A model generated the notes under the pieces. It worked only from the letters and a program-made list of their open reading frames with translations. It did not search any database and had not been told where the DNA came from. The position numbers and the translations under genes are program-made. A stretch of DNA of 24,737 bases from an uncultured Anaeromyxobacteraceae bacterium (GTDB lineage: Bacteria > Myxococcota_A > UBA9042 > DTJE01), in NCBI GenBank assembly GCA_964531595.1, contig CAZHDQ010000001.1, positions 1 through 24,737 on the forward strand, given 5' to 3'. How positions within the stretch are numbered: position 1 is the first letter of the stretch; every line of letters begins with the position of its first letter. Below, in pieces: positions 2,590 to 24,558 of the stretch.

Positions 2590-2736
2590 TCAGTCCCCTC
2601 CGGAAGACCGGCCGGGATAATACCACAGGGAAAAAGATCATCGGAACGGCGGTCACGGGCGCGCCCCGTTAGACCGCACAGGGTCGCCGCACACACCGAA
2701 TTAATCGCTGACTGCAACTAGATTCCGCGATTTGGC

Positions 2737-2742
2737 TATAAT
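2737..2742 (+). promoter_or_regulatory. Candidate sigma70 -10 element (TATAAT) for the large lipoprotein gene
   Basis: Perfect TATAAT 29 nt upstream of ATG 2771 in a locally AT-richer divergent intergenic region; no good -35. Confidence 0.4.
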
Positions 2743-2770
2743 GCGACTCCCTGTTCTTCGAGGCCTGGAT

Positions 2771-5512
2771 ATGGTTCGCTTCACGCGATTGGCAACTTGG
2801 GTCCTGGCTGTCGTACCACTGGCGGCGGTCGCCTGCCAAGGCGGGCTGGTTTCGGGGTTCCCGCCAAAGGTCGACACGGTACCCGACCGGGCGGAAATCC
2901 GTGCCGGCGAGGTCGTACACATCGCGTGTACCGTATCCGACGACCAGGGCAAATCGGTCGACACATCCACCACAGTAGCCATCGACCCGTCGGAGGGTCT
3001 GGCGCTGGCCGATCACGACGCGACACCCACGAAGGCCGGGACTTACACCGCGACCTGCGCGGCCCCGGAATTCGACGTCGTCGACGATACGCCCGCTGCT
3101 TTCAACGTTGTGCATGCGGACCCTGCCAAGGCGATCGCCACCGTGGACCCGTCATCGGTCCACGCAGGCCAGCCTGCAACCGTGACCTGCATCGTCGAGG
3201 ACGCCTTCGGCAACGTGATCACAGACGCGACGACGACAGTGACCGCAGCCGCCGGCGTAGACGTCGATGACCACCGCGTGTCGACGACCCAGACAGGTAC
3301 CTACGAGGTCGCGTGCGCGGTGCCCGGGTTTCAGGTGGAGGCATTTACCGACGTGCTGACAGTCGGCGCCGCCGACCCGATTCGCGTCGAGTTGTACATC
3401 AATCCAGACAAGCCTCGCTATGGACTGAACACCGATATTACCCTGTCCCACAAGGTGTTCGACGCATACGACAACGTCGTCGAAGGCCTGGGCTTCCAGT
3501 ACGTGATCCCCGAAAAGGGCATCAAGAAGATCGCCGACAACAAGGTGCGACTGATCGCCGAGGGCCACTACTTGGTCAAGGTGGTGCTGGACGCCCCGTG
3601 GGAGGCCATCGAGGACAGCCGAACGCTTATCTGCGACACGACGGGCCCGGGTTTCGAGGACCTGTATCCACCGCGTGGTCACACGACCGACAGCGAGCCC
3701 GTGCTGGTCGTGTCGGGCCGTGCCGTCGACCCGGCCGGGTCCAAAGTCGTCGAGGTTTTAGTAAACGGCAAGGAAGCGACCCTGGACGCCAACGGGTACT
3801 TCGAACTGCCCGTGGACAGCGCACACGGCGTCAATGGCCTGAAGATCAGCGCCAAGGACGAATTCGGTTTTTCGACGTTCGTAACCCGCGGCTACTACTA
3901 CTCGGAGGGCTGGCTGTACTCAGACCCCGAGGCCACCATCGGCGACGCGACGTTCGCCGAGGGCGCGATGCTGTTTTTGGGCCAACGGGCGCTGGACGAC
4001 GGTGACCACGATCCTGCACACCTGAACGATTTCGCGACAATCTTGGAAGTGCTGCTGGGCATCGACCTGGTCGACCTGATCGGTGGCATCCCGCCGTTCG
4101 CTACGACGATCCCGAACCTCATCAACTTGACCCTGCTGGGCGTCGGGCTCCAGGGCGACCTGGAGGTCCGGGTCACGGTCACCGACGTGTCCCTGGGGAC
4201 GCCGCATGTATCGCTGGACACACGGGACGGCGGGATGGAGGCCGGCATCGCGTTCGAAAACGTGTTGCTGGGACTCGACTTGGCGTTCTACGTCCATGCC
4301 CGCGCCACCGCGTTCGGCAATTCCTACCCGCTGCTGGACCCGGGCGTCGCCACGTCGTCAACGATGCGCGTCGGGCGCCTGGGCGTCAGCGTCAGTTTCG
4401 ACATCGACATGCCCCTGGGCGGTGCAGTTTCGGTTGAAGGCCGCGACTTCCAACTGGAAATCACGGACGTGGAAATTGACCCACTCGCCGGCCTGATGAT
4501 CGACCTGGGCATGGTGCCTGGCCTGGGTATCGACCTGGGCACCTACGACCTGTCGCAACTGGTCGGCGGGATCAACGATGTAATTCGCGACTACGTGCTG
4601 GGACCGCTGGTCAGTTTCATCACACAGCCACTGATCGACCTGCTTGAGCCGCTGGTGGTCCCGCTGATCGGCGATCTGATCGAGCAGGTGCTTGGGATGC
4701 TGGACATCCAGCAAACGGTCCAGATCCCGTCGATCCTGGGGATCCCGCCGGTTGACCTGGACCTGGCGCTGTCGCTTTCGTCGGTGACCTTTACCGAGGA
4801 CGGTGGCCGCCTGGGTCTGAATGTCGGCGTCCTGACCGAACACGCCGTTGACCACGAGCCGCTGGGCTCCATCCTTAGGGCCGGTTGCAACAGCGTCGAC
4901 CCGGATCCCGCGATGTTCGACTTCGGCGTCGAGCCCGGTATCCAGGCCGGCATCCGTTTGGACCTGGTCAACGAGCTGTTGTTCATGCTGTGGCGAACCG
5001 GAATGATCAACCAGACCCTCGACTTGGGCGGACTGATGGGCGGCGGCGGCAGTTCGTCGGTCGACAACCTGGTCATCACACCGAACGCCTATCTGCCACC
5101 AATCCTCGACGACTGCGGCGATATGCAGGAACTCCAGATCGGCGATCTGTACCTGGACATCCAGGGAGACGCGTTCGGTTTCAACATCGCGATGCGGGCG
5201 TGGCTCCAGTTGAAGATGGAGGCCAATATCTTCGCGACTGGCAACGAAATCGGGATACACATCGGCAAGGTCCGGTTCATGGAAACCGAAATCTTCGACG
5301 ACGGCGGCTTCGACCTGATCACGGACATCGTTGTGGGCCTTCTGCCCCAATTGATCAAGAGCCTGGAAAACCAGTCGTTCTCGTTCCCGATCCCCTCGAT
5401 TCCGCTGGACGGGCTGCTGCCTGGGCTGCCCGCCGGTGCCGAACTGCGCATCGGCGACTTGAAGGCCGGCACCGAACACGGCGTGATCGTGGTCGGTGGC
5501 AACCTGCAATAA
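2771..5512 (+). CDS. Large acidic lipoprotein (~913 aa): N-terminal Ig-like repeats plus a C-terminal tandem BPI/LBP/CETP-like (TULIP-like) region
   Basis: The ORF track starts at 2732, but ATG 2771 follows GAGG and gives a lipoprotein signal (MVRFTRLATWVLAVVPLAAVA-C). Three repeated 'CTV.D..G..(V/I)...TTV.......' Ig-like units, an Ig/cadherin-like 'VVSGRAVDPAGSKVVEVLVNG' unit, then ~515 aa patterned like BPI/PLTP. Confidence 0.85.
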   Translation: MVRFTRLATWVLAVVPLAAVACQGGLVSGFPPKVDTVPDRAEIRAGEVVHIACTVSDDQGKSVDTSTTVAIDPSEGLALADHDATPTKAGTYTATCAAPEFDVVDDTPAAFNVVHADPAKAIATVDPSSVHAGQPATVTCIVEDAFGNVITDATTTVTAAAGVDVDDHRVSTTQTGTYEVACAVPGFQVEAFTDVLTVGAADPIRVELYINPDKPRYGLNTDITLSHKVFDAYDNVVEGLGFQYVIPEKGIKKIADNKVRLIAEGHYLVKVVLDAPWEAIEDSRTLICDTTGPGFEDLYPPRGHTTDSEPVLVVSGRAVDPAGSKVVEVLVNGKEATLDANGYFELPVDSAHGVNGLKISAKDEFGFSTFVTRGYYYSEGWLYSDPEATIGDATFAEGAMLFLGQRALDDGDHDPAHLNDFATILEVLLGIDLVDLIGGIPPFATTIPNLINLTLLGVGLQGDLEVRVTVTDVSLGTPHVSLDTRDGGMEAGIAFENVLLGLDLAFYVHARATAFGNSYPLLDPGVATSSTMRVGRLGVSVSFDIDMPLGGAVSVEGRDFQLEITDVEIDPLAGLMIDLGMVPGLGIDLGTYDLSQLVGGINDVIRDYVLGPLVSFITQPLIDLLEPLVVPLIGDLIEQVLGMLDIQQTVQIPSILGIPPVDLDLALSLSSVTFTEDGGRLGLNVGVLTEHAVDHEPLGSILRAGCNSVDPDPAMFDFGVEPGIQAGIRLDLVNELLFMLWRTGMINQTLDLGGLMGGGGSSSVDNLVITPNAYLPPILDDCGDMQELQIGDLYLDIQGDAFGFNIAMRAWLQLKMEANIFATGNEIGIHIGKVRFMETEIFDDGGFDLITDIVVGLLPQLIKSLENQSFSFPIPSIPLDGLLPGLPAGAELRIGDLKAGTEHGVIVVGGNLQ

Positions 5513-8576: not shown

Positions 8577-11420
8577 ATGGAACGCCTGGTCCTGATCGAA
8601 TTCATCGCTGCCGACCGCCCGATCCGCGGGATCCAATTCCCCTATATCCATGGATTCGTGAAGGGACGGGGGCTTTTTTCCCACTGGCTTCGGTTCGGAC
8701 TGGCCCACGCTTCCCACCAATTCGTCAGAGGCGAGCACGGGATCGGCCTGGAACCGGGGGACATGGCGGCGCTGCTCGACTACCTCGACGCCTTCAAGCC
8801 GACTCGGGCGGTCTTCAACATCGCCCCGTCCTCCGATTTCCTTCGACAAATCGGCGATCGCTGTCCGGGCCTGCGGACGGCACTCGCCGGGACCCGCGGA
8901 ATGGGGGCCGCCGATCCTGGGCAAGGCCTAGAAACACTGTTCGGCACGACGCTGGAATTGACGCGCTTCCTGGGACTGCCCGAGGTCGCCGGGAAACCAA
9001 CATCGTTCATGCACGAAGTGACCCCGGATTTCGGCTTTTTGGCCATGAACCCGCTGGCGCGCAAGATCGACCCGATCCCCTACGTGGTGCTGGACTCGAC
9101 GTGCAAGTACGCACGCGGTCTGCGACACAACCCATTATTTTTGGACATCGACCTTTCCGGATGCGATCGCACAACCGGCTGCACCTTTTGCGACATCTCG
9201 GACGACTACCGGGCCGGTCTGACATTCACCCTGGAAAACGCCCGGATGCAGTTCGAGGCGCTGAAGCACACCCTGCCGCCCTTCGACCGGCCGGTCCAGG
9301 TCCGGCTGATCGGCGACCGATTGTTGGACCACGCGCCAAACCTGGTCCGGATTGCCCTGGACCTGGACATGCCCCCGTGCGAATGGCAGTTCGACACGCG
9401 TGCGGACGATTTGGTGCGCAGCCGTGTACGGTTCGAGGAGGCCCTCGTGTTGGCCACCGGAACCGGCCACCGGGTCCGGGTCACGCTGCTGGGCATCGAA
9501 AACTTCTCCCGCGACGAACTGTTGCGGATGAACAAGGGGTTGACCCCACAAGACAACCTGGACGCCATCCGGTGCCTCGTCGAATTGGGACGCGATCACC
9601 CGGCAGTCTTCGGCTCGATGGACGGTGGCTGCAGCACCATCCTCTTTTCCCCGTGGACGACGCTCGAAGACGTAGCTTTCAACCTTCGCATCATCAAAGA
9701 AGCCGGGATTTTTACGCTGACTGGAAAACTGCTCGGCTCACGGATGCGCCTGATCCCCGGCACCCCGATCGCGGCGCTGGCGCAACACGACGGATTAACG
9801 ACGGCGCAGTTCGACGACCCGCTGTTCGAATCCGCCATGCGAAACCTGTACGGCCAGGAAATTCCCTGGAAATTTCAGGATGCACGCGCGGACACTCTGT
9901 GCCGGATATTCGTCAGGCTGGACCTTGGGGTTAACGCGGATACGACGGACCCGTTGACACGCCAGGTCTCCCGCCTGCTGCAGGGCACCGGTGAGGACGT
10001 ATCGGCCATCCTGGACATCGCGCTGTCGCTGGTGGACGCGCTGACGAAACGTTGTCCACCGACCGAGATCTCGCTGAGAGCCGTCCCCTCGGCGTCGGAA
10101 CTTCTAAAACATTTCCAGCCGGTCTGTGGCGCGCATTCAGGTGGGGACGAACACCCGGACGATGTCGCCGCGGAACGCCCACCGGTTGCGTGGGCAGCCT
10201 CGCGGCCTGGTTGGTGGCACTCCCACGTCCGTCTGCTGTGTGCCACCGTGAATGCTGGCCTGAAGCCGGTCGCAAAACTGGAAGGCGTGCCCCGCGAACT
10301 GATCGGCCGTTTCGCCACCGAATTCGACATGCCGAACCTGATGGTCGTCGATTCCACCATGTACCCGGAGGGGCACCCGATCCTGTATTTTGGCAAGGAT
10401 CCTGAATCGGTGCAGCGACTTGCCAGGTTGACTCAAGTCCGGACGGGCGAGGCTTGGTCCGCCACGGCCCGCCCCAGGGACACGACCGGTGAGATCGGCG
10501 CGCTGCTCGGTTATCCGGCATGCTGCGTCAAGGCATTCCGGACCGGCAGCCAACGAGACGTCAACCGGTTCATTGAGATGCGACTAAACGACTCAGAACG
10601 GATCCCGCCGGAGCGCAATCCCTGGCCCTTCTCGGGGATATCTGCCGTACCTTGCAGCCCCGGATGCAGCGTCTGGCTCGAAGGCAACCAACGCATGCTG
10701 AATGCGGCCCACGCGGCGTTTACCGACGAGACATTTTCACTCCTAGAAGCATCCATGTCCCACCCCTGGCTACTGCTGCCGGAATTCGACTCCAGCATCC
10801 AAATGATCCCCGACGACCCGGTTGGACCCCACTTTCGATTCACACTGCCCGGCCCGGATCCGCACCCACTGGCTATGATCGGCGTCCTGGATGCCGACGA
10901 AATCCGGATGGACGACGAGCGAACGTGGCTGTTTCACCGTGGTGTGAAGGTAGCGGACCTTTCGATGCGGGCATTCGTCTGGTCCCACGAAAAAGTATTT
11001 CAGAGGCGCCTTTGGCAGTCGGTCCTGGACCTTCGCCAGATGACGAGGCCCCTTCGCGATAGGGCCGCTACAGCCGGCGCGTCGTCCCGCTCGGTCGCGG
11101 AAAAACTGCACGGATTCGTTTCGCAGATCCTGGCACGTTTCGAGTTCCGGGACACAAATGGCGGCGGGTTTCGAATCGGCAGCATCCGGGCTGTCGCGGA
11201 TGACAGCGTACACGTGGCGCTGGTGTCCGACCATGACACGTTTACGGTGGTGCTAAGGCCCCGAAAGGCCACACCAAAGGCATTTTTGAACCTGGGTCCT
11301 CTGGCACTCCTGTACCCGGGAGACCCCGCCGACAGCACCCAGGAACGCCAGCAGGCTATCCACGAACTGGCCGACCGCCTGGCCCACGGGATCGCCGAAC
11401 GAAGAAGGGATTACCGGTGA
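8577..11420 (+). CDS. Atypical radical SAM protein (947 aa) with a DUF483-like Cys-rich C-terminal fusion
   Basis: C-X19-C-X5-C-X2-C at 9102-9191 (..GCDRTTGCTFC). Radical SAM barrel elements 'LLGIENFSRDELLRMNKG', 'ILFSPWTT' and 'RMRLIPGTP'. C-terminal 'IGALLGYPACCVKAF' and 'PCSPGC'. Confidence 0.8.
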   Translation: MERLVLIEFIAADRPIRGIQFPYIHGFVKGRGLFSHWLRFGLAHASHQFVRGEHGIGLEPGDMAALLDYLDAFKPTRAVFNIAPSSDFLRQIGDRCPGLRTALAGTRGMGAADPGQGLETLFGTTLELTRFLGLPEVAGKPTSFMHEVTPDFGFLAMNPLARKIDPIPYVVLDSTCKYARGLRHNPLFLDIDLSGCDRTTGCTFCDISDDYRAGLTFTLENARMQFEALKHTLPPFDRPVQVRLIGDRLLDHAPNLVRIALDLDMPPCEWQFDTRADDLVRSRVRFEEALVLATGTGHRVRVTLLGIENFSRDELLRMNKGLTPQDNLDAIRCLVELGRDHPAVFGSMDGGCSTILFSPWTTLEDVAFNLRIIKEAGIFTLTGKLLGSRMRLIPGTPIAALAQHDGLTTAQFDDPLFESAMRNLYGQEIPWKFQDARADTLCRIFVRLDLGVNADTTDPLTRQVSRLLQGTGEDVSAILDIALSLVDALTKRCPPTEISLRAVPSASELLKHFQPVCGAHSGGDEHPDDVAAERPPVAWAASRPGWWHSHVRLLCATVNAGLKPVAKLEGVPRELIGRFATEFDMPNLMVVDSTMYPEGHPILYFGKDPESVQRLARLTQVRTGEAWSATARPRDTTGEIGALLGYPACCVKAFRTGSQRDVNRFIEMRLNDSERIPPERNPWPFSGISAVPCSPGCSVWLEGNQRMLNAAHAAFTDETFSLLEASMSHPWLLLPEFDSSIQMIPDDPVGPHFRFTLPGPDPHPLAMIGVLDADEIRMDDERTWLFHRGVKVADLSMRAFVWSHEKVFQRRLWQSVLDLRQMTRPLRDRAATAGASSRSVAEKLHGFVSQILARFEFRDTNGGGFRIGSIRAVADDSVHVALVSDHDTFTVVLRPRKATPKAFLNLGPLALLYPGDPADSTQERQQAIHELADRLAHGIAERRRDYR

Positions 11421-14466: not shown

Positions 14467-16860
14467 TCACCGCCCCGTCTGCCCTGCAAGCGGCTTGAAC
14501 ATCAGGTTGTAAAACATCTCTAGGTAACGGCCGGTTTCCTCTCGCTCGGGTCGGGTGATGAACTTCCAGAAGCCGTAGATCCGCGACAGTGTCAGCATCC
14601 GCCGTGCGTACAGGCCCCAGGTATAGCGTTCCTCGACCCGAGCGATACCCGCCTCGGCCAGCCGTTCCCACACAGTCGGATCGTCTGCGCACCGCGCCAG
14701 GAAGTCCGCCATGCGCGCCGCCGCCTCGTCCCCGCGTGTCGGGTCGACATGGAAACCCGATTTCCCGTCCTCGATGATCTCCAGCGGCCCACCAAACCGT
14801 GTCGCGAACGTCGGCAGGCCCGACGCCATCGCCTCGATCACCGTCAGGCCAAACGCCTCGAACAGCGCAGGTTGCACGAACGCGCCGCGTCGATCTGCCA
14901 CCCACCGGTACAGTTCGCCGGACAGGTTTTTGTCCAGACGCGCCCCGACCCAGCGCACCTTGTCATCCAGCCCGTGGCGGTCCAGCAGTTCATGCATCAT
15001 CCCGATCTGGTGTCGTTCCTCCTCATCCTCCGACTGGTCGGCCCGGACGGCCCCGGCGATGATCAGCAGGTTGGACCGCTCCTGTAAGTCCGGCGACTCG
15101 GCGTACCACGACACCAGACCGGTCAGATTCTTGATGTGGTCCATGCGGGCCATGCTGAACAGCAGCGGCAGTCCGGGACGCTTTAGTTGCCCACGGGACT
15201 GGTCGTCGGGCCCGCCCAGCACCAGGCTTTCGATTTCGGGGTGCAGTTCGACCAACCGCCGCTCCTGGTCGCGCCATGGGAAAAAGACCGTGTCGTCGGC
15301 GCCCGGGGACACGATGTTGAACTTGGGGTCGAAGACGTCGATCCCGTCAAGTACGCGGTACAGGCCGGGCATCGTAAACGTCCGATAGGACTCGTACTGG
15401 CCCACGCCGCGGCCGGCACCAGCGATCTCCTGGTAGGTGCTGGATATCACGAAATCCGCCCCGTTCATCGCGATCAGGTCCGCCGTGAACTGGCTGCTGA
15501 AGTGGTAGCGATCCTCGTTGGCCTTCCAGTACATCGCCGAAAACAGGTACTTCAGTTTTTCCAGCGCGTGGGCGATGTTGCACTGGGTGACGCCCAACCG
15601 CTGGGACAGCAGCCACGCGACCAGATTCCCGTCGGTGTAGTTGCCGACGATCAGGTCGGGACGGTCACGCATCTCGCGCAGCAGTTCGGCCTCGACCTCC
15701 AGTGCGAAACGCTCCAGGTACGAGTAGATCTCGAATCGCGAGATCCAGTGTGGAACCACGCTGCCGTCGGGGGTGCGGAACGGGACTCGCAGGATCCGGG
15801 CGTTCCTGGTGCCGACGATCGGCTCCAGGCGCTGGTCACAGGTCGTTCCCCGCGCTTCGGGAATCAGCCGAGTCACGACCAGGATCTCGGGCACGATGTC
15901 CAACCCCTGCTCCTTGATCTGATGGCGCATCTCGCGTTCCAGCGCCCGCACCTGGTTCAGGATGTACACCACTTGGCCGCCGGTGTCTGGCATCCCCAAC
16001 ACGCCCGACTGGCCGAAAAACCCGTGGGGCGACAGGATCGCCACCCGAAAGATCATCGGGATGCGTGCCAAGAACGTTTCCAGAGCGGCCGGGGACGGAG
16101 CCTCCAAAATGTCCAGCAGCAGACTCAGCGTGTCACGCATGCGCCCCACGGTGTCGCCCCACCCCCGCAAAAAGCCCAGCGCCTCCAGTTCGGGCCCCGC
16201 CTCGTCCCATCCCTGGGCGTCATCACAACCTGCCAGGTGTTCCAGGGCGTTCGTAACCGCTTCCCTCAACTCTGGCACGACGGTGATCCGCCTGTCCAAC
16301 ATCAGCGGACGCCCGTCGTGCTGGTGGACGCGCAGGAATTCCAGAAGTGCCCGGGGCCCAGTGCCGTCGGTACTGCGAAATAGCCGGCTGGACAGAGCGC
16401 GGTTCAGGAATTCGACCCCCCGGCCGATTGAGCGGGGCTCCGTCATACGCGGCATGTCCCGGCCAAAGGGCTTGAAATCCAGTTCCAGCATCCATTCGTC
16501 GGCAGGGCGGTCGGGTTCGACCAAGCGTTCCTTGAAGCGCAGGAAGTCCGACGGCGTCACTTCGTCTATCAGCACTTCTTCCGCATGGAGCCGAAGATAG
16601 CGGTTGGCGGCCACGCGCGGACGCACATCCAACATCACCCAAGGCGCCGAGACCGCACATTCCTGGACGTCGACCATGATGGACTCGATATCCGTACCGG
16701 CCAGCGGCGCACCCGCCGGGGTCGCGACAAACTCCCGCCACACGGCGTCAAGATCGGTCGGCAGCAGGAACGGCCGCCCGGCGCGAATCAGTTGTTGCAG
16801 CAAAAGGTACAGGGGGCGACGATGTTTTGTTATCAGGGCTTCCAGTTTTTCCAGATTCAT
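14467..16860 (-). CDS. susA: Sucrose synthase (GT4)
   Basis: 797 aa; 'SPHGFFGQSGVLGMPDTGGQVVYIL', 'PDLIVGNYTDGNLVA', 'QCNIAHALEK', 'GIDVFDPKFNIVSPGAD', 'EAFGLTVIEAM'. ATGA overlap with the SPS stop. Confidence 0.96.
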   Translation of the reverse strand: MNLEKLEALITKHRRPLYLLLQQLIRAGRPFLLPTDLDAVWREFVATPAGAPLAGTDIESIMVDVQECAVSAPWVMLDVRPRVAANRYLRLHAEEVLIDEVTPSDFLRFKERLVEPDRPADEWMLELDFKPFGRDMPRMTEPRSIGRGVEFLNRALSSRLFRSTDGTGPRALLEFLRVHQHDGRPLMLDRRITVVPELREAVTNALEHLAGCDDAQGWDEAGPELEALGFLRGWGDTVGRMRDTLSLLLDILEAPSPAALETFLARIPMIFRVAILSPHGFFGQSGVLGMPDTGGQVVYILNQVRALEREMRHQIKEQGLDIVPEILVVTRLIPEARGTTCDQRLEPIVGTRNARILRVPFRTPDGSVVPHWISRFEIYSYLERFALEVEAELLREMRDRPDLIVGNYTDGNLVAWLLSQRLGVTQCNIAHALEKLKYLFSAMYWKANEDRYHFSSQFTADLIAMNGADFVISSTYQEIAGAGRGVGQYESYRTFTMPGLYRVLDGIDVFDPKFNIVSPGADDTVFFPWRDQERRLVELHPEIESLVLGGPDDQSRGQLKRPGLPLLFSMARMDHIKNLTGLVSWYAESPDLQERSNLLIIAGAVRADQSEDEEERHQIGMMHELLDRHGLDDKVRWVGARLDKNLSGELYRWVADRRGAFVQPALFEAFGLTVIEAMASGLPTFATRFGGPLEIIEDGKSGFHVDPTRGDEAAARMADFLARCADDPTVWERLAEAGIARVEERYTWGLYARRMLTLSRIYGFWKFITRPEREETGRYLEMFYNLMFKPLAGQTGR

Positions 16861-19055
16861 GTTTCCTCGCGCTTGCCCAGGGGACGGGGTTCCAGGAACT
16901 TCGTGATCTCGACGGTTTCAAGGATTCCAGCAGCGTTGCAGGCCTGGGCGAAATGGACACGGGGCGCGCCTCGCAGCGATTCCAGTTCCGGGTCGTGGTT
17001 GCCGACGACAGCGGCCCAGGTGTTCAGACGCAGCATATCCTCGTCGTTGCCCGAGTCGCCCGCCACCAACACCTGGTCCGGGTCCAGGCCCCATTTCACC
17101 ATCACGTAGCGCACCGCGGTACCCTTCGACGCCCGCAGCGGCAGTACGTCTACATGGCGACTGTGCGACGCAATCACGTGGGCGCGGATGCCCCGCTCCC
17201 GCAGGTGCAGCACAATCCGGCGCCGGTCGGGTGCCTCGCCCCCCGTTGCGTTGAAACTGACCTTGAAGCGGCGCTGCTCCGACGCCGGTTGCTCGACCAG
17301 CCACGGTAGTTCGCCCATCGCCGCAAGCACCGCGTCCCGATCCCAGCGCCAGTCCAGGTGGCGCTCCCAGACATCGTCAGCCACCAGACGCGCGCCGTAG
17401 TGGATTTCCGCGCCGACCGATGTGATCCAGACGTCCGGTTCGGGCACACCCCACTCCTTCAGCACCTTGCGAGCACTAGCCAACGTTCGCCCCGTGGCGA
17501 CGCCCAATCCGGTGGGCATCGGCGCGCCATCCAGGCGGCCCAGCAAGGCTCGCAGCCCGTCCCGATCGCCCAACAGCGTCCCGTCCAGGTCCGCTATCAC
17601 CAACCGCTTCAGGCGAGGCAACCGGACCGGTCGCAAGGCCCGGATCGTCCGCTTCCATTTTTTTTGAACCGCGTGGATCCGTGAAACGTACTGCTGGACG
17701 TGCCCCGCCCAGGTGTAGGCTCGGCTGGCATTACGTACCCCGCTGCGAGACCACGTTTTCCAGCGCCCGCGGTCCGACAACGCATCCATGATCGCGTCGC
17801 CCATCGCCGCCGTTTCCAGCGGGTCGACCAGGACGCCATTGTGGCAATGCGACAGGATTTCCTTGGGACCACCGTCGTTCGTGGCGACGACCGGCAGGCC
17901 ACTGGCCGCCGCCTCCAGCAGGGTCAGGCCAAATGGCTCGGTCAGGGCCGGATTGACGAAGACTCCATACGAGCGGGCGGCAGCCCGATAGACATCCGGC
18001 ACCTCGTCACGTCGATGGGCCCTGGGCAGCGCCACGGACCCGTACAGGTCCTGGGAGTCCACCTCGTGCAACACATCGGTCAACACGCGTGCGGGCTCGT
18101 CGTCCATCGCTCGGATGTCGTCGCGGTTGCCCAGGAACAGGACCAGGTTGGCCCGACGCCGCAACTCAGGATGCTGCCCAAAGGCACGCACGAGGCCGGG
18201 TACATTCTTGCGCTCATCGGCGCGCGACAGGGCCAGGACCATGGGCAGGCGCGGATCCCGCAAGAAGCGGCCGATTTCGTCCTCGATAGGGGCCCGTCCC
18301 TCGAACCGTCGTAGCGGCCGGAAGTGTGCCAGGTCCACCCCAGGCGGGATCACACGGGCATGCTTGGCCCGGAAGTTTGAGTACAGGCCGTATTGCTCCT
18401 TGATCTCCTGGGCAGTGCTGGCCACCAGGATCTTCGCAGCATCCAGGGCCGTTTCCTCGGCCTCGATACGCGTCGAAATATTGTACCTTTCCTCGATGAC
18501 CCGAACGTCCAGGCCCCGCGCTTGCAGTCGCTGACGCTTAACGCGGCCCAGCGAGTGCCCGGTAAAGCCCATCGGCACCCCCAGCAGAGCGGCCAGTCGC
18601 GACGCAGCCAATCCGCCGTCGGCATAGTGCCCGTGCACCAGGTCCGGGAACCGGTCAATGCGCCGCAGGTGGGCCAGGACGCCGTCCACCAGTTCGTCCA
18701 GATACGGCCACAGGACCTCCTTGCGCAGGTAACGCCGGGGACCGAACGGCACACGGATCAACCAGGCGCACTCGGCCAAGCGCTCCTCGGGCTCGGCATA
18801 GACGGGATCGACCTTCCGGTCGAAGATTTGGCGCGTGAACAGATCGACCCGCTCCACGTCTGGGTGCGCCGAAAGCGCCCTGGCCAGATCCACAACGTAC
18901 TGGACCTGCCCACCGGTGTCCGCGTCGCGTCCCAGTTCGATTTGTTCGCCACGGACCAGGCCGTGGACGCTTAGCATCACAACGTACAGACGCCCGTCGG
19001 CCATGGGGGCATCTGTCGGCTTTGCCGCTTGTTCGGGGATGGAAGTCTCCTGCAT
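16857..19055 (-). CDS. sps: Sucrose-phosphate synthase fused to a sucrose-phosphate phosphatase (HAD-IIB) domain (732 aa)
   Basis: 'LSVHGLVRGEQIELGRDADTGGQVQYV', 'PDLVHGHYADGG', 'LSRADERKN', 'EPFGLTLLEAAASGLP'. HAD motif I 'ADLDGTL' and motif IV 'GDSGND'. Start moved from 19424 to ATG 19055, which has a GGGAG RBS. Confidence 0.93.
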   Translation of the reverse strand: MQETSIPEQAAKPTDAPMADGRLYVVMLSVHGLVRGEQIELGRDADTGGQVQYVVDLARALSAHPDVERVDLFTRQIFDRKVDPVYAEPEERLAECAWLIRVPFGPRRYLRKEVLWPYLDELVDGVLAHLRRIDRFPDLVHGHYADGGLAASRLAALLGVPMGFTGHSLGRVKRQRLQARGLDVRVIEERYNISTRIEAEETALDAAKILVASTAQEIKEQYGLYSNFRAKHARVIPPGVDLAHFRPLRRFEGRAPIEDEIGRFLRDPRLPMVLALSRADERKNVPGLVRAFGQHPELRRRANLVLFLGNRDDIRAMDDEPARVLTDVLHEVDSQDLYGSVALPRAHRRDEVPDVYRAAARSYGVFVNPALTEPFGLTLLEAAASGLPVVATNDGGPKEILSHCHNGVLVDPLETAAMGDAIMDALSDRGRWKTWSRSGVRNASRAYTWAGHVQQYVSRIHAVQKKWKRTIRALRPVRLPRLKRLVIADLDGTLLGDRDGLRALLGRLDGAPMPTGLGVATGRTLASARKVLKEWGVPEPDVWITSVGAEIHYGARLVADDVWERHLDWRWDRDAVLAAMGELPWLVEQPASEQRRFKVSFNATGGEAPDRRRIVLHLRERGIRAHVIASHSRHVDVLPLRASKGTAVRYVMVKWGLDPDQVLVAGDSGNDEDMLRLNTWAAVVGNHDPELESLRGAPRVHFAQACNAAGILETVEITKFLEPRPLGKREET

Positions 19056-19289
19056 GTCGCTCCCTGAGGTCAAAACTATCGCCTGGACCGTCCGCGAGGA
19101 GGGCATCGTCGAGTGCGCCAAGAAGCGGGATGTCGGCCCGGAATTAGTGTCCCAGGATATCACATCGAGATTGATTTCCCTATCCATCCGGCGCCATCCC
19201 GTCCACCCAACGAATGCCTCGATGGGGTCCCCCTTTGACTCACAGGGACATCCTGGCACTACGGCAGCATGCGCTACGGGCTCTCGCAA

Positions 19290-19318
19290 TTGACGGTCCG
19301 GCGGCCCTTCCTTAGCAT
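19290..19318 (+). promoter_or_regulatory. sigma70-type promoter for the PG-binding metallopeptidase operon
   Basis: TTGACG-N17-TAGCAT, with a GGAGGG RBS at 19360-19365 before ATG 19372. Confidence 0.65.
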
Positions 19319-19371
19319 GGAATCGTCGTATCCAGTCGTGAAATCCCCGTCCGGATTCCGGAGGGTCACCG

Positions 19372-21378
19372 ATGCCACCGACGTTTGAACCGGAGAGCAA
19401 GCGGCCGATTGAGCCGGCCCGCAAACCGAAGCAAGGGTCTGCGACGACAAGGGGAACGGCCGGCGTGCGCCAGCGACTGCGGGGGATGGGCTACGAGGAG
19501 GGGCGTGCCCTGCTGAGCCCCGGGGGATCCGACTCCGACACGCCTTCCGAATCGGTCCTGGGACCGGCGGCGGACACCACACCTCCCGGCGGCACGACAC
19601 CGGTCGAGCCGGGTGGAGTGTCATCGATCCCCCCAGAGCAGCGCCGACTGGTCCGGGCCGGAAGCCAGGGAAAGGAAGTCGCCTACGCCCAGGAACGCCT
19701 GAACGCCCATGGGGCGCAGCCGCTCCTGGCCGTGGACGAGATGTTCGGACCGCTCACGCGCAAGGCGTTGTTGGACTACCAGAACTCGCACGCACTGAAG
19801 GCAGACGCGGTCGTGGGCCCGCGCACCTGGGCATCGCTGGACGGTCCGGCCGACGTGGGGAAGTCGCAGGGCGCCGGCACGGGAGGCGGCGCGGGCGGGC
19901 CGGGGTCGACAGTGCTGCTGTATGACAACGCGGTTCACCCCCTCAACCCGCCGGCCCCGGGCACCAAGAAGGACGTGCCCATCGCCGAGATCAAGTCGAA
20001 GCAGGGGACCAAGTCGCCGGAGCTGGGCAAGACCATCAAGGTCGACGGCGCGGCCGCGGGAAGCGAGGCCGAGGTGCACCTGTACAACGTGATCGCGCAA
20101 CTCGGCGCGCGCTCGCAGTGGGGCTCGGAAAGCGACATGGTCACGCAGATCGGTTACGCGCCCAGGGGGGGAGGGCCGGCTCCCAGGGGCCGCGTCACCT
20201 TGCGGATCGACGGGGCTGGTAACGCCACGGCGTCCCTGGTCGGCTCGGGGCCGGCCACGGTGGCGGCCACGTTCAAGGACATCGCGACCGGCAAGGCTGG
20301 GCTGAAGACGAACTTCGGCTTCTCGTTTGTCGAGGACGGCGACGCGACCTGGACCCTCGACGAACTCAACAAGATCCAGGCGGCCCTGTCCCGCCTTTCG
20401 GGCAAGGAGAAGGCGGCCCTGAGCGGGGTCGTGCTGAAGCGGATGCACTCGATCGAGAGGGGCGGCCAGGCGCTCAGCGGGTTGTACGAGACCAGCCAGA
20501 AGTTCTCCGACGACAAGAAGGCCGCGACGAGCGCCGCGACCCTGAGCTTGGCAGACGCCGCATTCTCGTCCGACCTCAGCAACTTCATCGGCGATCAAAC
20601 TGACGCCGCGCCGGCGAGCTTCCAGACCATCCTCCACGAAGTCGGGCACGCAGTGGAGGGCGCCGAGGAGTTCAGGACCACGGCAGCCCGCAACGAGGCC
20701 CAGGCCGACGTCAACCGCAAGATCGAACCGTTCAACGCACAGGTGGCGAAGGCCGCCCCGCTGTTCGGGGCTCTGAACACCGCACACAACGCCGCGAACC
20801 AGAAGGCCGCCAAGTACCCGAAGGCCCAGCAGGGGGCGTCTGCCGCGTACAAAGGGGCGATGCGCCAGGCGACCAACACGATCGAGGCGTTCTCCAACAA
20901 TCGGAGCGGCGGCAACATCGCCACCATGGAGGCAACGGCGAACACGGCGATCGCGAACCGAGACACCCAGCGTGTGGCGCTGGACAAGGCGTCTTCGTCG
21001 AAGCACCCTGCGCTGACCGACTACTCGGCAGTGGAAACGCGGCAAGGCGATCTGATGGCAGTGGCCAAGCGCGAACAGGCGGCGCTGGGCGTGGTCGAAG
21101 CGGCCCGGGAAAAGTTGCGTGCGGCCGAGACCGCAGTGGCGGCCACCAAAAGCGGCAGCCGGACGGTGCGATTGAAGGCGTTCGCCGACCTGGTCGCCAA
21201 GGAGAAGATCCCCCCCTTGACGAAGTACGCCCAGAATGAGACCAAGAAGAAGGCGTCCACGGGAATCGCGGAGTTCTACGCGGAAGCGTTCTCGCTGTTC
21301 CACGCGGATCCGACGTACCTGAAGTCGCAGGCGCCCAAGCTCTTCGACTTCTTCGACAAAGGGGAGCACGTGAAATGA
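19372..21378 (+). CDS. Peptidoglycan-binding (PG_binding_1) domain protein with a C-terminal HExxH zinc metallopeptidase (anthrax-lethal-factor-like motif arrangement); putative effector
   Basis: PG-binding 'GSQGKEVAYAQERLN...VDEMFGPLTRKALLDYQ..HALKADAVVGPRTWASL'. HEVGH at 20635-20649 and 'TKYA...EFYAEAF' (EFYAEAF at 21271-21291). No signal peptide. Confidence 0.78.
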   Translation: MPPTFEPESKRPIEPARKPKQGSATTRGTAGVRQRLRGMGYEEGRALLSPGGSDSDTPSESVLGPAADTTPPGGTTPVEPGGVSSIPPEQRRLVRAGSQGKEVAYAQERLNAHGAQPLLAVDEMFGPLTRKALLDYQNSHALKADAVVGPRTWASLDGPADVGKSQGAGTGGGAGGPGSTVLLYDNAVHPLNPPAPGTKKDVPIAEIKSKQGTKSPELGKTIKVDGAAAGSEAEVHLYNVIAQLGARSQWGSESDMVTQIGYAPRGGGPAPRGRVTLRIDGAGNATASLVGSGPATVAATFKDIATGKAGLKTNFGFSFVEDGDATWTLDELNKIQAALSRLSGKEKAALSGVVLKRMHSIERGGQALSGLYETSQKFSDDKKAATSAATLSLADAAFSSDLSNFIGDQTDAAPASFQTILHEVGHAVEGAEEFRTTAARNEAQADVNRKIEPFNAQVAKAAPLFGALNTAHNAANQKAAKYPKAQQGASAAYKGAMRQATNTIEAFSNNRSGGNIATMEATANTAIANRDTQRVALDKASSSKHPALTDYSAVETRQGDLMAVAKREQAALGVVEAAREKLRAAETAVAATKSGSRTVRLKAFADLVAKEKIPPLTKYAQNETKKKASTGIAEFYAEAFSLFHADPTYLKSQAPKLFDFFDKGEHVK

Positions 21379-21836
21379 GGGCTGACCGGTCGATCGCCCT
21401 GGCGGTGATCCTGGCAGGCTGCTCCGGGGCAGTGACCGGGACCGGACCCGGGCACGCGGGAGGGGAACCCATGGAATTCCAGGCACCCGGTCCCTTGGCT
21501 CTGTATGGATGGCTGGTCCCGGGCGGGACCGAGCCGGTTCCCTCCGCGTTCGGGGAGGCCGCCGGCCGGTTCGAGCAGGCGAAGGCCGAATATGAGGCGG
21601 GCAGGTGGCGAGCCGCGGCCCGGGCGTTTTTGGACGCGGCGGCACTCCTGCCCCGCGGGCCGGGCCCCCACTCGTCGATCTCGGGCGCCGACCGCGGGGT
21701 GTCGTACCGCAACGCCGAATCGTCGTTCCAAATGGCCGGGGACACCGAGGAGGCGCGACGGACCTTCGAGGCCCTCGCCGCGTCGGACCCCGACTGCGCG
21801 GGGCCCCTGGGCGAAATCCTGGCCCGCCTGCGCTAG
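21375..21836 (+). CDS. Small lipoprotein with TPR-like helices; candidate immunity/partner protein
   Basis: ATGA overlap with the upstream gene; lipobox ILAG-C; helical 'RFEQAKAEYEAGRWRAAARAFLDAA' and 'YRNAESSFQMAGDTEEARRTFEAL'. Confidence 0.75.
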   Translation: MRADRSIALAVILAGCSGAVTGTGPGHAGGEPMEFQAPGPLALYGWLVPGGTEPVPSAFGEAAGRFEQAKAEYEAGRWRAAARAFLDAAALLPRGPGPHSSISGADRGVSYRNAESSFQMAGDTEEARRTFEALAASDPDCAGPLGEILARLR

Positions 21837-22112
21837 TACTAGCGTGTTGCAAACCATCTAGTCAGCCTATTGCGTATTTGTGCGGCCAATCCTTGCTCGG
21901 GTAGGGTCGGCGCCCGCGTTGGCGGCGAGTGTGCGCGACGGTGCCTGCAGTACAGGCACCACTCCAGTTTTTGCATCAGGTGGCGGGCGATCTCGACGCG
22001 GGTAGTACCGCTCGAGTCGCCAGCGCAGCTTCGCCCGGCGGACGAGCGTAGTGAAGTCGGTGTCGGCGGGCTCCGTAGCCAGCCAGTACTTGGCCGGCTC
22101 CTCCTCGGTCAT
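21833..22112 (-). mobile_element. IS701-family insertion sequence remnant (3' end of transposase, internally deleted)
   Basis: Minus strand encodes 'EEEPAKYWLATEPADTDFTTLVRRAKLRWRLERYY' (IS701-type catalytic-E region). A second frame from 22003 gives 'TRVEIARHLMQKLEWCLYC...' to TAG at 21839-21841, followed by TAC-TAG at the CTAG site 21833-21836. Confidence 0.8.
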
Positions 22113-22116
22113 CCGT

Positions 22117-22304
22117 GTCCACCGGATCGTGAAGGACCTGCCCGGGGGCGTGTCGCGCGTCGAGGCGACCTCCTTCTTCCCTCCTTCTTCAAGTACTACG
22201 GCTGGGGTTCGTGGGCGGCCAGCAAGGCAGAGGACGGCATGAGCGCATGGATTCAAACAAAATACTCGAATCTGAGGAGGAAGTTCGTCAAGAGGTGCCA
22301 GTAG
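22117..22304 (+). pseudogene. Orphan 3' gene fragment frameshifted by an exact 11-bp tandem duplication
   Basis: CCTCCTTCTTC occurs twice in tandem (22169-22179, 22180-22190). Removing one copy gives a continuous 58-aa frame VHRIVKDLPGGVSRVEATSFFKYYGWGSWAASKAEDGMSAWIQTKYSNLRRKFVKRCQ-stop with coding-like codons. Confidence 0.55.
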
Positions 22305-22653
22305 TTCTTCCCTGATCTTGCAAGCACGACTGGATACGATGAAATCGCGCTCAGACCGGCGCTGAAGCCATGGGCGGTGCCTTCCTGACCCGAGACTCAG
22401 GTCAGGCAGGGGGCCCGCTCCAGGCACGGTTCACGAGGTTCACGGAGGTGGTAGCGAGGGAGGTGCGCCTTCAGTGCTATTGATTCTGCATCTCGCGTAC
22501 AGTCAACTGACCCCGAGTGTGCAGCAGTGATCGCCGCGATCCTTGATTCGCTGCCACGGCCGTAGGGCGAAGAACGCCCATCCACCGCAAGATCCGGGTC
22601 GCAAATGGCAGCCGCAGGCGGCACAATCACCACGGGCAGATCGCGAGAGCTTG

Positions 22654-23499
22654 ATGAACGGCGGGGATTACACGCGGGTGGCTGCAGCGATCCGGTTCCT
22701 GGAGGCGCACGCCGTCCAGCAGCCTGGCCTCGCTGATGTCGCTGCGCACGTGGGGTTAAGCGAATTCCATTTCCACAGGCTGTTCAAACGCTTGGCCGGG
22801 GTGACTCCCAAGGACTTCCTTCGGGTCCTGACCCTGGCGAGGGCGAAGCGACTGCTGGCGGAAAACCATGGCGTGCTGGAAACGTCCATCGACGTCGGGC
22901 TATCGGGCCCGTCGCGACTGCACGACCTGTTCACGGGGCTGGAGGGCATGACGCCCGGGACCTTCCGGCGTGGTGGCCAGGGCCTCATCGTTCGTTGGGG
23001 CATATTCCCGACCCCGCTGGGGGCCGCAGTGTTCGCGGCAACTGACGCGGGGCTGTGCGCAGCGGCGTTCCTGGGAGACAACGAGGATCCGGAAGCAAAC
23101 CTGCGGTCGCGGTGGCCAAAGGCGACCCTGGTGAAGGAACCGGAGGCAGTGCGGATGGACGCAGAGGAGGTCGCGGCGCGGATGCGTGGGGACCCCGGGC
23201 GGCCGCTGTCTTTGGCAATGCAGGGGACCCCGTTCCAGATGCTGGTTTGGCAGGCCCTGGTGGCGATCCCCGAGGGGCGCGTGACGACCTACGGGGCACT
23301 GGCCTCGGGCCTGGGTATGCCGTCGGCTTGCCGTGCCGTGGGTGCGGCGGTCGGGGCGAACCCGATCGCCTACCTGATTCCATGCCACCGGGTGATCCGC
23401 TCGACCGGGGCCGTGGGCGACTACCGGTGGGGCTGCGACCGGAAGATTGCGCTGCTGGCCATGGAAGGGGCACGACACCTCGATTGGCTGACAAAATGA
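22654..23499 (+). CDS. Bifunctional AraC-type HTH / methylated-DNA--protein-cysteine S-methyltransferase (Ada-like, no N-terminal Zn domain)
   Basis: 'LADVAAHVGLSEFHFHRLFKRLAGVTPK' (AraC HTH), 'GTPFQMLVWQALVAIPEG..TTYG', active site 'IPCHRV'. Likely start is ATG 22654. Confidence 0.93.
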   Translation: MNGGDYTRVAAAIRFLEAHAVQQPGLADVAAHVGLSEFHFHRLFKRLAGVTPKDFLRVLTLARAKRLLAENHGVLETSIDVGLSGPSRLHDLFTGLEGMTPGTFRRGGQGLIVRWGIFPTPLGAAVFAATDAGLCAAAFLGDNEDPEANLRSRWPKATLVKEPEAVRMDAEEVAARMRGDPGRPLSLAMQGTPFQMLVWQALVAIPEGRVTTYGALASGLGMPSACRAVGAAVGANPIAYLIPCHRVIRSTGAVGDYRWGCDRKIALLAMEGARHLDWLTK

Positions 23500-23511
23500 T
23501 TGGAGTAGCGA

Positions 23512-24558
23512 ATGCCTCGATTTCCCGGTGATCCCGTCCCCGTGCTGTTCCACCCTGCCCAGATGGCCCACCAACCATTGCTGGAGTGGGCCTTTGGGAA
23601 GCGAATGCGTCACCCCGAGACGTCTCGGCGCGCCGAACGCATCCTGGCGACGCTGGCCCGGCATCCTCGGACCTTCCCCATCCAGCAGCCTGCGCGGATG
23701 CCCGTGGCGCTGATCCGGCGGGTACACCACCATCGACTGCTGACGCTGTACCAAACGGCGCAGGGGCTGCCCGAGGGCGAAACCTTCTACCCAAGCGTCT
23801 TCCCGAAGCGGTCCCAGTGCGTCGGCGATCCCTTCGACATCCACCAGGCGGGCTATTTCTGCTTCGACTCGGGCACCCCCCTGCATGCCCGAACCTGGGA
23901 TGCCGCCGCCTGGAGCGCCGCCTGCGCCGTCGAGGCCGCAGCGCTGGTGGCCCGCGGTACCACGCGCTTGGCCTACGCCCTGTCCAGACCGCCTGGTCAC
24001 CACGCATCCCGGGACCTGATGGGCGGCTATTGCTATCTGAACAACGCCGCCGTGGCTGTCGAGCGGCTGCGCCGCCTGGGACGTGTCGCCGTACTGGACA
24101 TCGATTTCCACCACGGCAACGGGACGCAGGCGATCTTTTGGCGCGATCCCGACGTTTTGTACGTGTCGATCCACGGAGACCCGCGCCAGTTCTATCCGTT
24201 CTTCAGCGGATACGCATCCGAGACAGGTGCCGGCCGAGGCGCCGGGACCACCTTGAACCTGCCGCTTCCAGCGGGCACGACCGGCGACCAGTACCTGGAC
24301 GTGCTGAACCGCGAGGCACTGCCGGCCATCGCCGCCTTCGACCCGACTATGCTGGTGGTTTCCGCCGGCTTCGACACATGGCGCAACGACCCCATTGGGG
24401 ACTTCGCGCTTGAAACCGACGACATGGAGCGCCTGGGCGAGGCAATCGGTGCCCTTGGGCGACCCGCAGTCGTCGTCCAGGAAGGCGGCTACGCGACCGA
24501 GGCCCTGGGCCACAACGTCGTGGCCTTCCTGTCGGGCATGCGTCGGGGCGGCGGGTAG
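23512..24558 (+). CDS. Histone deacetylase-family protein / acetylpolyamine amidohydrolase-like
   Basis: 'HPETSRR', 'RPPGHHA...GGYCYLNNAAVA', 'LDIDFHHGNGTQ', 'SIHGDP', 'SAGFDT..NDP', 'QEGGY'. GGAG RBS 12 nt after the ada stop. Confidence 0.93.
   Translation: MPRFPGDPVPVLFHPAQMAHQPLLEWAFGKRMRHPETSRRAERILATLARHPRTFPIQQPARMPVALIRRVHHHRLLTLYQTAQGLPEGETFYPSVFPKRSQCVGDPFDIHQAGYFCFDSGTPLHARTWDAAAWSAACAVEAAALVARGTTRLAYALSRPPGHHASRDLMGGYCYLNNAAVAVERLRRLGRVAVLDIDFHHGNGTQAIFWRDPDVLYVSIHGDPRQFYPFFSGYASETGAGRGAGTTLNLPLPAGTTGDQYLDVLNREALPAIAAFDPTMLVVSAGFDTWRNDPIGDFALETDDMERLGEAIGALGRPAVVVQEGGYATEALGHNVVAFLSGMRRGGG

Follow-up and report, generated by a model that had tools for sequence, protein, structure and literature searches.

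A predicted zinc metallopeptidase and its coupled lipoprotein from an Anaeromyxobacteraceae contig: a candidate orphan toxin-partner cassette of an extracellular contractile injection system cargo family

Introduction

The lipoproteins NlpI and LbcA, both of the tetratricopeptide-repeat (TPR) type, partner periplasmic proteases acting on the cell envelope, Prc and CtpA, respectively, and these are Sec-exported serine proteases that are activated or steered by the lipoprotein. A different kind of pairing is found in the H2 type VI secretion system (T6SS) of Pseudomonas aeruginosa, where the C-terminal metallopeptidase of VgrG2b is a zinc peptidase toxin active in the bacterial periplasm and is neutralized by binding of PA0261, a small envelope-targeted protein that is encoded just downstream and is a lipoprotein in some lineages (PMC6899460). 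Toxins are also carried by extracellular contractile injection systems (eCIS). The domain DUF4157 (PF13699, eCIS_core) is a marker of eCIS-associated toxins (EATs) (PMC8213781, PMC11297309), and in the published layout of eCIS cargo an N-terminal loading region, which is disordered, precedes an optional DUF4157, and the effector occupies the C terminus (bioRxiv 10.64898/2026.05.27.728243). Most antibacterial EATs have no identifiable immunity gene, which surveys have found puzzling (PMC8213781). Here we analyze two overlapping genes, called A and B, on contig CAZHDQ010000001.1 from an uncultured Anaeromyxobacteraceae bacterium. The stretch analyzed (the window) is the entire contig of 24,737 nt, and statements about the locus cover these 24.7 kb only. 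On balance, A and B appear to be a stand-alone ("orphan") cassette of a toxin and its cognate partner, belonging to a large, uncharacterized family of eCIS cargo toxins.

Results and Discussion

Conservation of the gene pair

The two genes are arranged as follows.

19372..21378, plus strand: ORF A (open reading frame, ATG start), 668 aa, a signal-less multidomain predicted zinc metallopeptidase and predicted injection-system cargo toxin.
21375..21836, plus strand: ORF B (ATG start in an ATGA overlap with the stop codon of A), 153 aa, an all-helical partner and predicted cognate inhibitor or immunity protein.

A scan of genome contigs with A returned 80 loci, most of them matching PG_binding_1 only and set aside, and about 13 with the C-terminal domain of A (CTD, the C-terminal 392 residues). 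Counts given below out of 24 refer to the distinct protease-gene loci compared, window included. Each of the three closest homologues of A (L001, L006, and L007) precedes a small ORF 41 to 47% identical to B, and a B-like gene lies directly 3' of the protease gene in 13/24 loci; a search with the single B sequence found two proteins, and a search with a B profile found 13. Scanning metagenomes with an alignment of B yielded one locus, which was truncated. In L001, L007, L008, L010, L011, L013, L017, L092, and L096, the junction of the two genes is likewise ATGA, GTGA, or a short overlap. B-like ORFs follow CTD genes with either PG_binding_1 or eCIS_core N-termini, and they are present in a Verrucomicrobiae metagenome-assembled genome (MAG) (L010) and in Myxococcus qinghaiensis (L017) even though only the CTD is shared with A at these loci. 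B therefore follows the catalytic domain and not the N-terminal part of A, which is the behavior expected of a cognate inhibitor. Overall, the comparison supports A and B as a conserved, translationally coupled pair, in agreement with an earlier annotation of the locus (the sequence-only reading), which had proposed a putative, ATGA-coupled effector-immunity pair.

At the 3' end of A (21361-21378) and at the equivalent positions in L001, L006-L008, L011, and L013, GGGGAG/GGAGG encodes the conserved C-terminal G-E/G-H-L/V-K of A and also serves as the Shine-Dalgarno sequence of B, whose start overlaps the end of A. A constraint at the nucleotide level may thus account for some of the residue conservation at the C terminus of A.

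The N-terminal half of A

Upstream of its protease domain, A carries three features.

19372..19641, plus strand: disordered N-terminal region, aa 1-90 (AlphaFold2 confidence), a candidate cargo-loading sequence.
19465-19521, plus strand: conserved N-terminal motif VRQRLRGMGYEEGRALLSP (alignment), with two short helices over the motif.
19666..19839, plus strand: PG_binding_1 domain, aa 99-156 (Pfam, E 1.1e-10, 41.9 bits against a cut-off of 23).

A GGAGG lies 8 nt 5' of the ATG of A, and the frame is open for just 10 codons before this ATG, so that no hidden signal peptide is possible; nor is there a hydrophobic stretch at the N terminus. In the AlphaFold2 model (built with 42 homologues; mean predicted local distance difference test score [pLDDT] of 89, and >95 for residues 180-668), residues 1-30 and 50-81 fall below a pLDDT of 50, and short helices are placed at 32-36 and 41-48. 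The PG_binding_1 domain, which matches the structures 5nm7, 5tv7, and 1lbu, is a three-helix domain followed by a Gly-rich linker. The lack of a signal and the peptidoglycan-binding domain proposed in the sequence-only reading were thus recovered, and the N terminus that it called low-complexity is predicted to be disordered. The combination of a signal-less protein with a disordered N terminus fits the published layout of eCIS cargo.

VRQRLRGMGYEEGRALLSP aligns with GN[QR]Axxx[L]L, a motif seen in other members of the family (for example, "...IGNQAVQRLL..."); it occurs in 12/152 N-termini against 0.15 expected by chance and nowhere else in those proteins. It sits within the N-terminal 30 to 75 residues, for example in P0006, P0008-P0010, P0014-P0016, P0091, and P0168. 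In the window clade the corresponding alignment columns read GYEEGRALL, and the motif is shared with orthologues located in eCIS clusters (see below). By analogy with the described cargo, for which a loading role of the N terminus has been reported (bioRxiv 10.64898/2026.05.27.728243), this short motif in a disordered N terminus is a candidate eCIS cargo-loading tag.

Two other identities for A were considered and rejected. PHROGs matches of A comprise endolysin cell-wall-binding modules only and there are no phage genes nearby, which argues against a prophage endolysin, and there were no PADLOC matches that would indicate an anti-phage defense system.

A predicted split zincin related to lethal factor

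The C-terminal part of A is made up as follows.

19909..20616, plus strand: mixed alpha/beta region, aa 180-415, before the active-site helix, with strands at 252-259, 272-279, 285-292, and 354-406.
20635..20649, plus strand: HEVGH zinc-binding and catalytic motif (H422, E423, H426), invariant in 42/42 aligned homologues.
20659..21144, plus strand: Ala/Lys/Gln-rich bundle of long helices, ~165 aa, aa 430-591, forming an insertion that separates the HExxH helix from the Glu helix.
21217..21291, plus strand: LTKY...EFYAEAF, the lethal-factor-like Tyr and Glu segment (T617, Y619, E634, E638), from alignment and profile.

All of the 26 full-length homologues retain H422, E423, H426, T617, Y619, E634, and E638 unchanged, which bears out the metallopeptidase signature HEVGH...Y...EFYAEAF noticed previously in the translation. 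In the model, the HEVGH helix starts the first of four long helices (416-479, 484-508, 513-540, and 552-591), and short helices with LTKY and EFYAEAF close the chain; the bundle itself showed a generic four-helix-bundle likeness only (McpS ligand-binding domain, TM score ~0.48, Foldseek). The Tyr-Glu segment contains an 8-residue insertion between Tyr and Glu that is specific to the window protein. From the model, the region at aa 180-415 is presumed to be the N-subdomain of a zincin fold; its invariant residues include W250, E253, D255, D280, G283, and N284, and Foldseek gave no significant structural match for it.

Profile comparisons connect this domain to anthrax lethal factor. A whole-family profile matches the lethal factor catalytic fragment (E 1e-3), and a profile built from the final ~110 residues matches lethal factor and nothing else in the PDB (E 2.3e-4 to 0.01, HMMER). 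The family segment "ipplTkYak...eEFYAEAysLw...nakklfdfF" aligns with "snLTSYGRTNEAEFFAEAFRLMH...NAPKTFQFI" of lethal factor, residues 712-766. Direct matches to the Pfam family ATLF were obtained for 4/143 family members and to Peptidase_M90 for 5/143. We conclude from these alignments that the protease domain of A is a predicted remote zincin of the lethal factor/MtfA type, split by a helical bundle of ~165 residues.

Given a catalytic segment of this kind, A might target eukaryotic cells as lethal factor does, with B guarding the producer from leaky activity. Most characterized eCIS act on eukaryotes, many eCIS toxins have no immunity gene (PMC8213781), and B is missing at 11/24 loci, all of which would suit such a role. 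Neither a peptidoglycan-binding domain nor an exported lipoprotein partner has an obvious use in a eukaryotic cell, however, and conservation of a cognate partner argues for antibacterial activity. We regard a eukaryotic target as very unlikely and favor a bacterial one, in keeping with an orphan eCIS cargo toxin.

The protease family and contractile injection systems

A search with the CTD yielded 553 clusters at 50% identity (E <1e-3). The CTD is nearly always C-terminal and is joined to variable N-termini. In a Pfam census of 143 representatives (80 + 63), eCIS_core was N-terminal in 60 (37/80 + 23/63) and PG_binding_1 was present in five, whereas PAAR, VgrG, Rhs, MIX, LXG, contact-dependent inhibition (CDI), and type VII secretion system (T7SS) trafficking domains were found in 0/143. 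Two members, P0018 and P0043, combine eCIS_core, PG_binding_1, and the protease domain, and thus have the architecture of A plus the marker.

Orthologues that have the architecture of A (PG_binding_1 and CTD) and are 42 to 47% identical to it are located in eCIS clusters. P0018 (43% identical to A) lies among genes for CIS_tube, two gp19-type tube proteins, a sheath, other eCIS_core proteins, Pvc16_N, and an AAA ATPase; L008 shows this same set of sheath, tube (two genes), CIS_tube, Pvc16_N, and AAA ATPase genes. The arrangement at P0018 recurs in L011, a Propionibacteriaceae MAG, and in three metagenome contigs (L092-94), where a 642-aa protein that has the architecture of A and lacks DUF4157 is encoded between the genes of two giant eCIS_core proteins. 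L096 (P0015) is flanked by a Tail_P2_I baseplate gene on one side and a gene for a 1529-aa eCIS_core protein on the other, and L024 (Saprospiraceae) has an AAA ATPase gene upstream and a sheath gene downstream. In all, the protease locus is in an eCIS cluster in 5/24 cases, and the protease is fused to eCIS_core in 7 more. The evidence points to a tie between the protease family of A and contractile injection systems, of the eCIS and not the T6SS type.

The sequence-only reading had suggested delivery by a T6SS or an eCIS. The eCIS part of that suggestion holds for the family, through the fusions to eCIS_core and the orthologues within clusters, whereas the T6SS part is not indicated: no T6SS trafficking domain, DUF4123-type adaptor, or T6SS neighborhood was found in A, in the window, or among the 143 representatives. 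A could nevertheless be an effector delivered in another way, for which a T6SS, outer-membrane exchange, vesicles, and lysis are candidates, with B as a periplasmic immunity lipoprotein. The layout is that of periplasm-acting T6SS pairs, in which a signal-less zinc peptidase is followed by a small envelope-targeted partner (PMC6899460), and eCIS genes were not seen near members of the window clade. What makes such a route improbable is the contrast between 0/143 for PAAR, VgrG, Rhs, MIX, and LXG-type domains and 60/143 for eCIS_core, together with the position of five out of five cluster-embedded relatives in eCIS-type clusters (with Pvc16, AAA ATPase, or Tail_P2_I); moreover, A has neither a PF13699 match nor a sequence match to VgrG2b structures.

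Several observations concern the surroundings of the cluster-embedded relatives. The effector region of L008 and L092-L094 encodes two giant eCIS_core proteins of 1125 to 1731 aa, one with a faint GH-E match; in the same loci, the B-like gene is overlapped at its 3' end by a molybdopterin oxidoreductase gene on the opposite strand, and a neighboring gene encodes a TEN_YD-shell (Rhs-like) protein of >2000 aa. In L096, small ORFs without Pfam matches (8949-9425 and 17265-17894) stand beside the other eCIS_core toxin and may be partner or immunity genes.

Fold and localization of B

Three features lie within ORF B.

21375..21422, plus strand: lipoprotein signal peptide, MRADRSIALAVILAG/C, lipobox LAGC, Cys16 (simple lipoprotein rule).
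21459..21473, plus strand: internal GGAGG, 7 nt, and ATG (Met33), a candidate second initiation site (alignment).
21543..21830, plus strand: folded helical (TPR-like) domain, aa 57-152, five helices (pLDDT 88-98).

The model of B consists of a disordered leader and linker and then five helices. Eight TPR families of Pfam match it, every one below its gathering score, and the best fold matches (PcrH, FLU, Sec17, and Sec72) are all TPR or TPR-like and weak (E ≥0.3, TM score ~0.4-0.5). The TPR-like fold assigned to B in the sequence-only reading is thus weakly supported: the top fold matches agree with it, and the scores, sub-threshold in Pfam, do not carry it further.

The N terminus of B, MRADRSIALAVILAGC, has a charged n-region, a hydrophobic h-region, and a lipobox Cys (MRADR-SIALAVI-LAG/C). 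In the window clade, the frames of B homologues are open back to an ATG or GTG that overlaps the stop codon of A, and in the extension a hydrophobic stretch likewise links a charged n-region to a Cys; gene callers had started three of these homologues at an internal Met. The lipoprotein rule was passed by 7/8 extensions (examined in the window, L001, L006, L007, L010, L017, P0190, and P0195), compared with 0.2 to 3% of composition-matched shuffles (0.2% for the window peptide), and the leaders are alike in kind and not in sequence. An artifact of an upstream in-frame ATG was rejected as their source, the leader being lipoprotein-like in seven diverged loci. By contrast, the B homologues of Actinobacteria (L008, L011, L013, and L092), of the cyanobacterium L095, and of L096 have no signal and start directly with the folded domain. 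By these criteria the predicted lipoprotein leader of B is real but clade-specific. The lipoprotein signal recognized in the sequence-only reading therefore stands; its proposed periplasmic inhibitor would be a feature of the window clade and does not extend to the family as a whole.

Met33 of B aligns with Met1 of the signal-less homologues. An internal Met or Val with GGAGG 3 to 7 nt upstream occurs in the window, L001, L006, L007, and L017, which are 5/7 lipoprotein-type loci, and the background of internal in-frame starts with such a Shine-Dalgarno sequence is 2.2% in these loci, where GGA makes up 13% of Gly codons. The chance of 5/7 would be ~1e-7 if the loci were independent, and they are only partly so. 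This arrangement suggests a possible second, cytoplasmic isoform of B starting at Met33.

The absence of a signal in 6/13 B-containing loci, every eCIS-embedded one included, raises the possibility that B is a cytoplasmic chaperone or loading adaptor, which would keep A in solution or pass it to the loading ATPase, like the TPR-type secretion chaperones, and that its product in the window is the short form from Met33. The internal Shine-Dalgarno sequence and Met in 5/7 lipoprotein-type loci would fit, as would the type III secretion chaperone PcrH among the best fold matches (weak, E 0.36), and eCIS chaperones have been speculated on (PMC11297309). Those fold matches are weak, however; if B were purely a cytoplasmic chaperone and its client has no signal, it would be difficult to account for a lipoprotein signal that at least seven diverged loci have retained; and B tracks the catalytic CTD and not the N-terminal loading region, which is the pattern of an inhibitor. 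We consider a chaperone unlikely, and an inhibitor remains the function that we favor for B.

It is also conceivable, though we hold it only tentatively, that one B gene makes two proteins, an exported lipoprotein from the ATGA start and a short cytoplasmic form from Met33. The long form would shield the periplasm from toxin injected by neighbors, and the short form would restrain the cell's own toxin or chaperone A before loading. The short form is the exact counterpart of the signal-less B found in Actinobacteria and cyanobacteria, and under this arrangement the lipoprotein leader would be a clade-specific addition to an ancestrally cytoplasmic partner. If true, immunity to a contractile-injection toxin would here be provided in two compartments, which would bear on how producers survive their own eCIS toxins.

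A model for the orphan cassette

In the model that we propose, A, which has no secretion signal, is synthesized in the cytoplasm and would be packed into a phage-tail-like particle whose genes lie elsewhere in the genome. The likely loading sequence is the disordered stretch of ~90 residues at its N terminus, with the conserved G-x-x-x-x-x-x-LL motif. After injection into a neighboring bacterium, PG_binding_1 would hold A at the cell wall. The C-terminal ~490 residues, a predicted zinc endopeptidase with HEVGH, Tyr619, and Glu634 that is split by the long helical bundle, would then cut an envelope protein or peptide. B would bind the protease domain and keep A harmless to the producer and its kin, the lipoprotein form protecting the periplasm of kin. 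Export of B as a lipoprotein in the window clade would imply that the periplasm is where the protease does harm, envelope cleavage being its most likely action.

Several results weigh against this model. The sequence-only reading had pointed to T6SS or eCIS loci as a check on delivery, and no secretion or injection machinery of either kind is present on the 24.7-kb contig; likewise, the surroundings of the three closest homologues of A, out to 10 kb, contain no eCIS or T6SS genes, and the window-clade loci (window, L001, L006, and L007) have neither an eCIS cluster nor an eCIS_core fusion within the DNA available. PF13699 has no match in A at E ≤1. The Pfam ATLF match to A (E 1.1e-3, 19.1 bits against a cut-off of 27.4) covers residues 633-663 only, so that by the curated threshold A is outside ATLF, and a Foldseek search of the whole A model against PDB and BFVD found the PG-binding domain and generic helical bundles only, with no zincin or lethal factor match; the ~165-aa insertion breaks the domain. 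With regard to B, no recognizable B-like gene follows the protease gene in 11/24 loci, and in L003 and L005 housekeeping genes come directly after the A homologue, without B. Finally, the signal-less B of 6/13 B-containing loci, found in Actinobacteria, the cyanobacterium, and L096, means that periplasmic action is no family-wide feature.

Genomic surroundings

The flanks of the pair contain two further features.

19290..19318, plus strand: promoter-like site, TTGACG-17 nt-TAGCAT, in the intergenic region from which ORF A and the minus-strand sucrose-phosphate synthase gene diverge.
22011..22175, minus strand: IS701-family transposase remnant, 55 aa (tblastn), directly downstream of the pair; it is context and lies outside the proposed mechanism.

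The site at 19290-19318 matches 9/12 consensus positions and is the sole such site in 18800-22700, against 0.2 expected from shuffles. A promoter here is plausible on these grounds, and "near-consensus," as it had been called, is too strong a term. The Lys(AAG)-rich codon style that had been noted for the pair was borne out in one respect: Lys makes up 6.9% of A versus ~2% in flanking genes, and K/(K+R) is 0.57 versus ~0.2. The AAG preference of A (0.89) is ordinary for the contig, and B is not Lys-rich. A distinct codon style of A was rejected accordingly, the difference being one of lysine content and not of AAG preference.

Debris of an insertion sequence had also been reported downstream, and the remnant confirms it. 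The 55-aa stretch is 47 to 53% identical to IS701 transposases over aa 85-139 of ORF 21867..22427 (minus strand; E 1e-4, tblastn), and the absence of a Pfam match for this ORF fits a fragment. The adjacent remnant and the amino acid composition of A, which is atypical for the contig, together point to a mobile-DNA context. A perfect 14-bp palindrome, CGCTAGTACTAGCG, at 21825-21850 straddles the stop codon of B, beyond which the G+C content falls and the IS701 remnant follows; the palindrome could be a small hairpin or a boundary scar of an insertion sequence.

The setting bears on whether A is instead an endogenous, autolysin-like protease of cell-wall or envelope remodeling with B as its lipoprotein regulator or adaptor, as NlpI or LbcA would be. 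Cell-wall hydrolases and endolysins typically carry PG_binding_1, the features of B are those of a small TPR-like lipoprotein, and several homologues of A lie among housekeeping genes. A, however, has neither a signal peptide nor room for one and so no Sec or Tat route to the periplasm; the family is patchily distributed across phyla, with members fused to eCIS_core and placed in eCIS clusters; and an insertion sequence remnant adjoins the pair. A remodeling protease is highly improbable in our view, and an orphan toxin cassette accords better with these surroundings.

Other genes of the contig are ordinary and include those for a FadL-like porin, an extracytoplasmic function (ECF) sigma factor, a GNAT protein, an alcohol dehydrogenase (ADH), an FGE-sulfatase-domain protein, sucrose synthase, sucrose-phosphate synthase/phosphatase, an Ada-like regulator, and a deacetylase. 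Adjacent genes at 14467-19424 (minus strand), for sucrose synthase (797 aa) and a fused sucrose-phosphate synthase/phosphatase, form a sucrose metabolism operon divergent from A; the ORF of the latter has 855 aa, and its real start is probably ~125 to 140 codons inside. At 22543-24558 (plus strand), a gene for an AraC-type helix-turn-helix/methylguanine-methyltransferase (Ada-like) fusion is followed by a gene of the histone deacetylase family, with the frames offset by 12 nt. Two large ORFs are uncharacterized, one of 947 aa at 8577-11420 (plus strand) with no Pfam match, and one of 926 aa at 2732-5512 (plus strand) with sub-threshold Invasin_D3 and MG2 matches only. Matches to the contig in sequencing runs came from DNA metagenomes of landfill and bioreactor samples only, and none from RNA.

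Comparison with known systems

Full-text literature searches found no description of the protease family of A or of its partner. As natural eCIS cargoes are mostly unknown, an unnamed toxin family of >500 clusters would be a new class of eCIS effector, and a conserved, coupled partner would offer an answer to the puzzle of eCIS toxins that lack immunity genes. Because the localization signal of the partner varies by lineage, the site of toxin action and the protection of the producer become directly testable, and the changing localization of B and its possible dual initiation are the features to follow. The candidate N-terminal loading tag is of interest for engineering protein delivery by eCIS.

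Like EATs such as Cgo1 and Cgo2, which are cargo of AlgoCIS, A is signal-less, with a disordered N terminus and a predicted C-terminal effector (PMC8213781, PMC11297309, PMC8894135, bioRxiv 10.64898/2026.05.27.728243). Its CTD is fused to eCIS_core in 60/143 relatives, and its orthologues adjoin Pvc15/Pvc16-like genes in the eCIS effector region. Unlike described EATs, A does not contain the marker DUF4157 and its contig carries no eCIS gene, and a split lethal-factor-like zincin with a conserved partner is not among the EATs found in the literature searches.

In its catalytic ancestry, A has as its closest relative, judged by sequence, lethal factor (MEROPS M34, Pfam ATLF) and MtfA (Peptidase_M90). 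With these it shares the active-site helix HE[FV]GHAV[DE] and, downstream, LTxY...EF[FY]AEA[FY] with the catalytic Tyr and the Glu that is the third zinc ligand. The matched segment is contiguous in lethal factor, whereas A has ~165 residues of long helices between the motifs and, in the window protein, 8 extra residues between Tyr and Glu that lethal factor does not have; and lethal factor has PA-binding and VIP2-like domains, whereas A has no other lethal factor domain.

Small helical-repeat lipoproteins of the outer-membrane type that are paired, genetically or physically, with envelope-acting proteases, NlpI-Prc and LbcA-CtpA, resemble A and B in composition. A differs from Prc and CtpA in being a signal-less predicted zincin, and A and B behave like a mobile toxin cassette. 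By analogy, the closest functional counterpart of the predicted toxin and inhibitor is VgrG2b with PA0261. VgrG2b is a DUF4157-type peptidase fused to a T6SS spike, whereas the zincin of A is not of the DUF4157 type and its family is affiliated with eCIS; PA0261 is unrelated to B in the searches made, and the relatives of B are often cytoplasmic.

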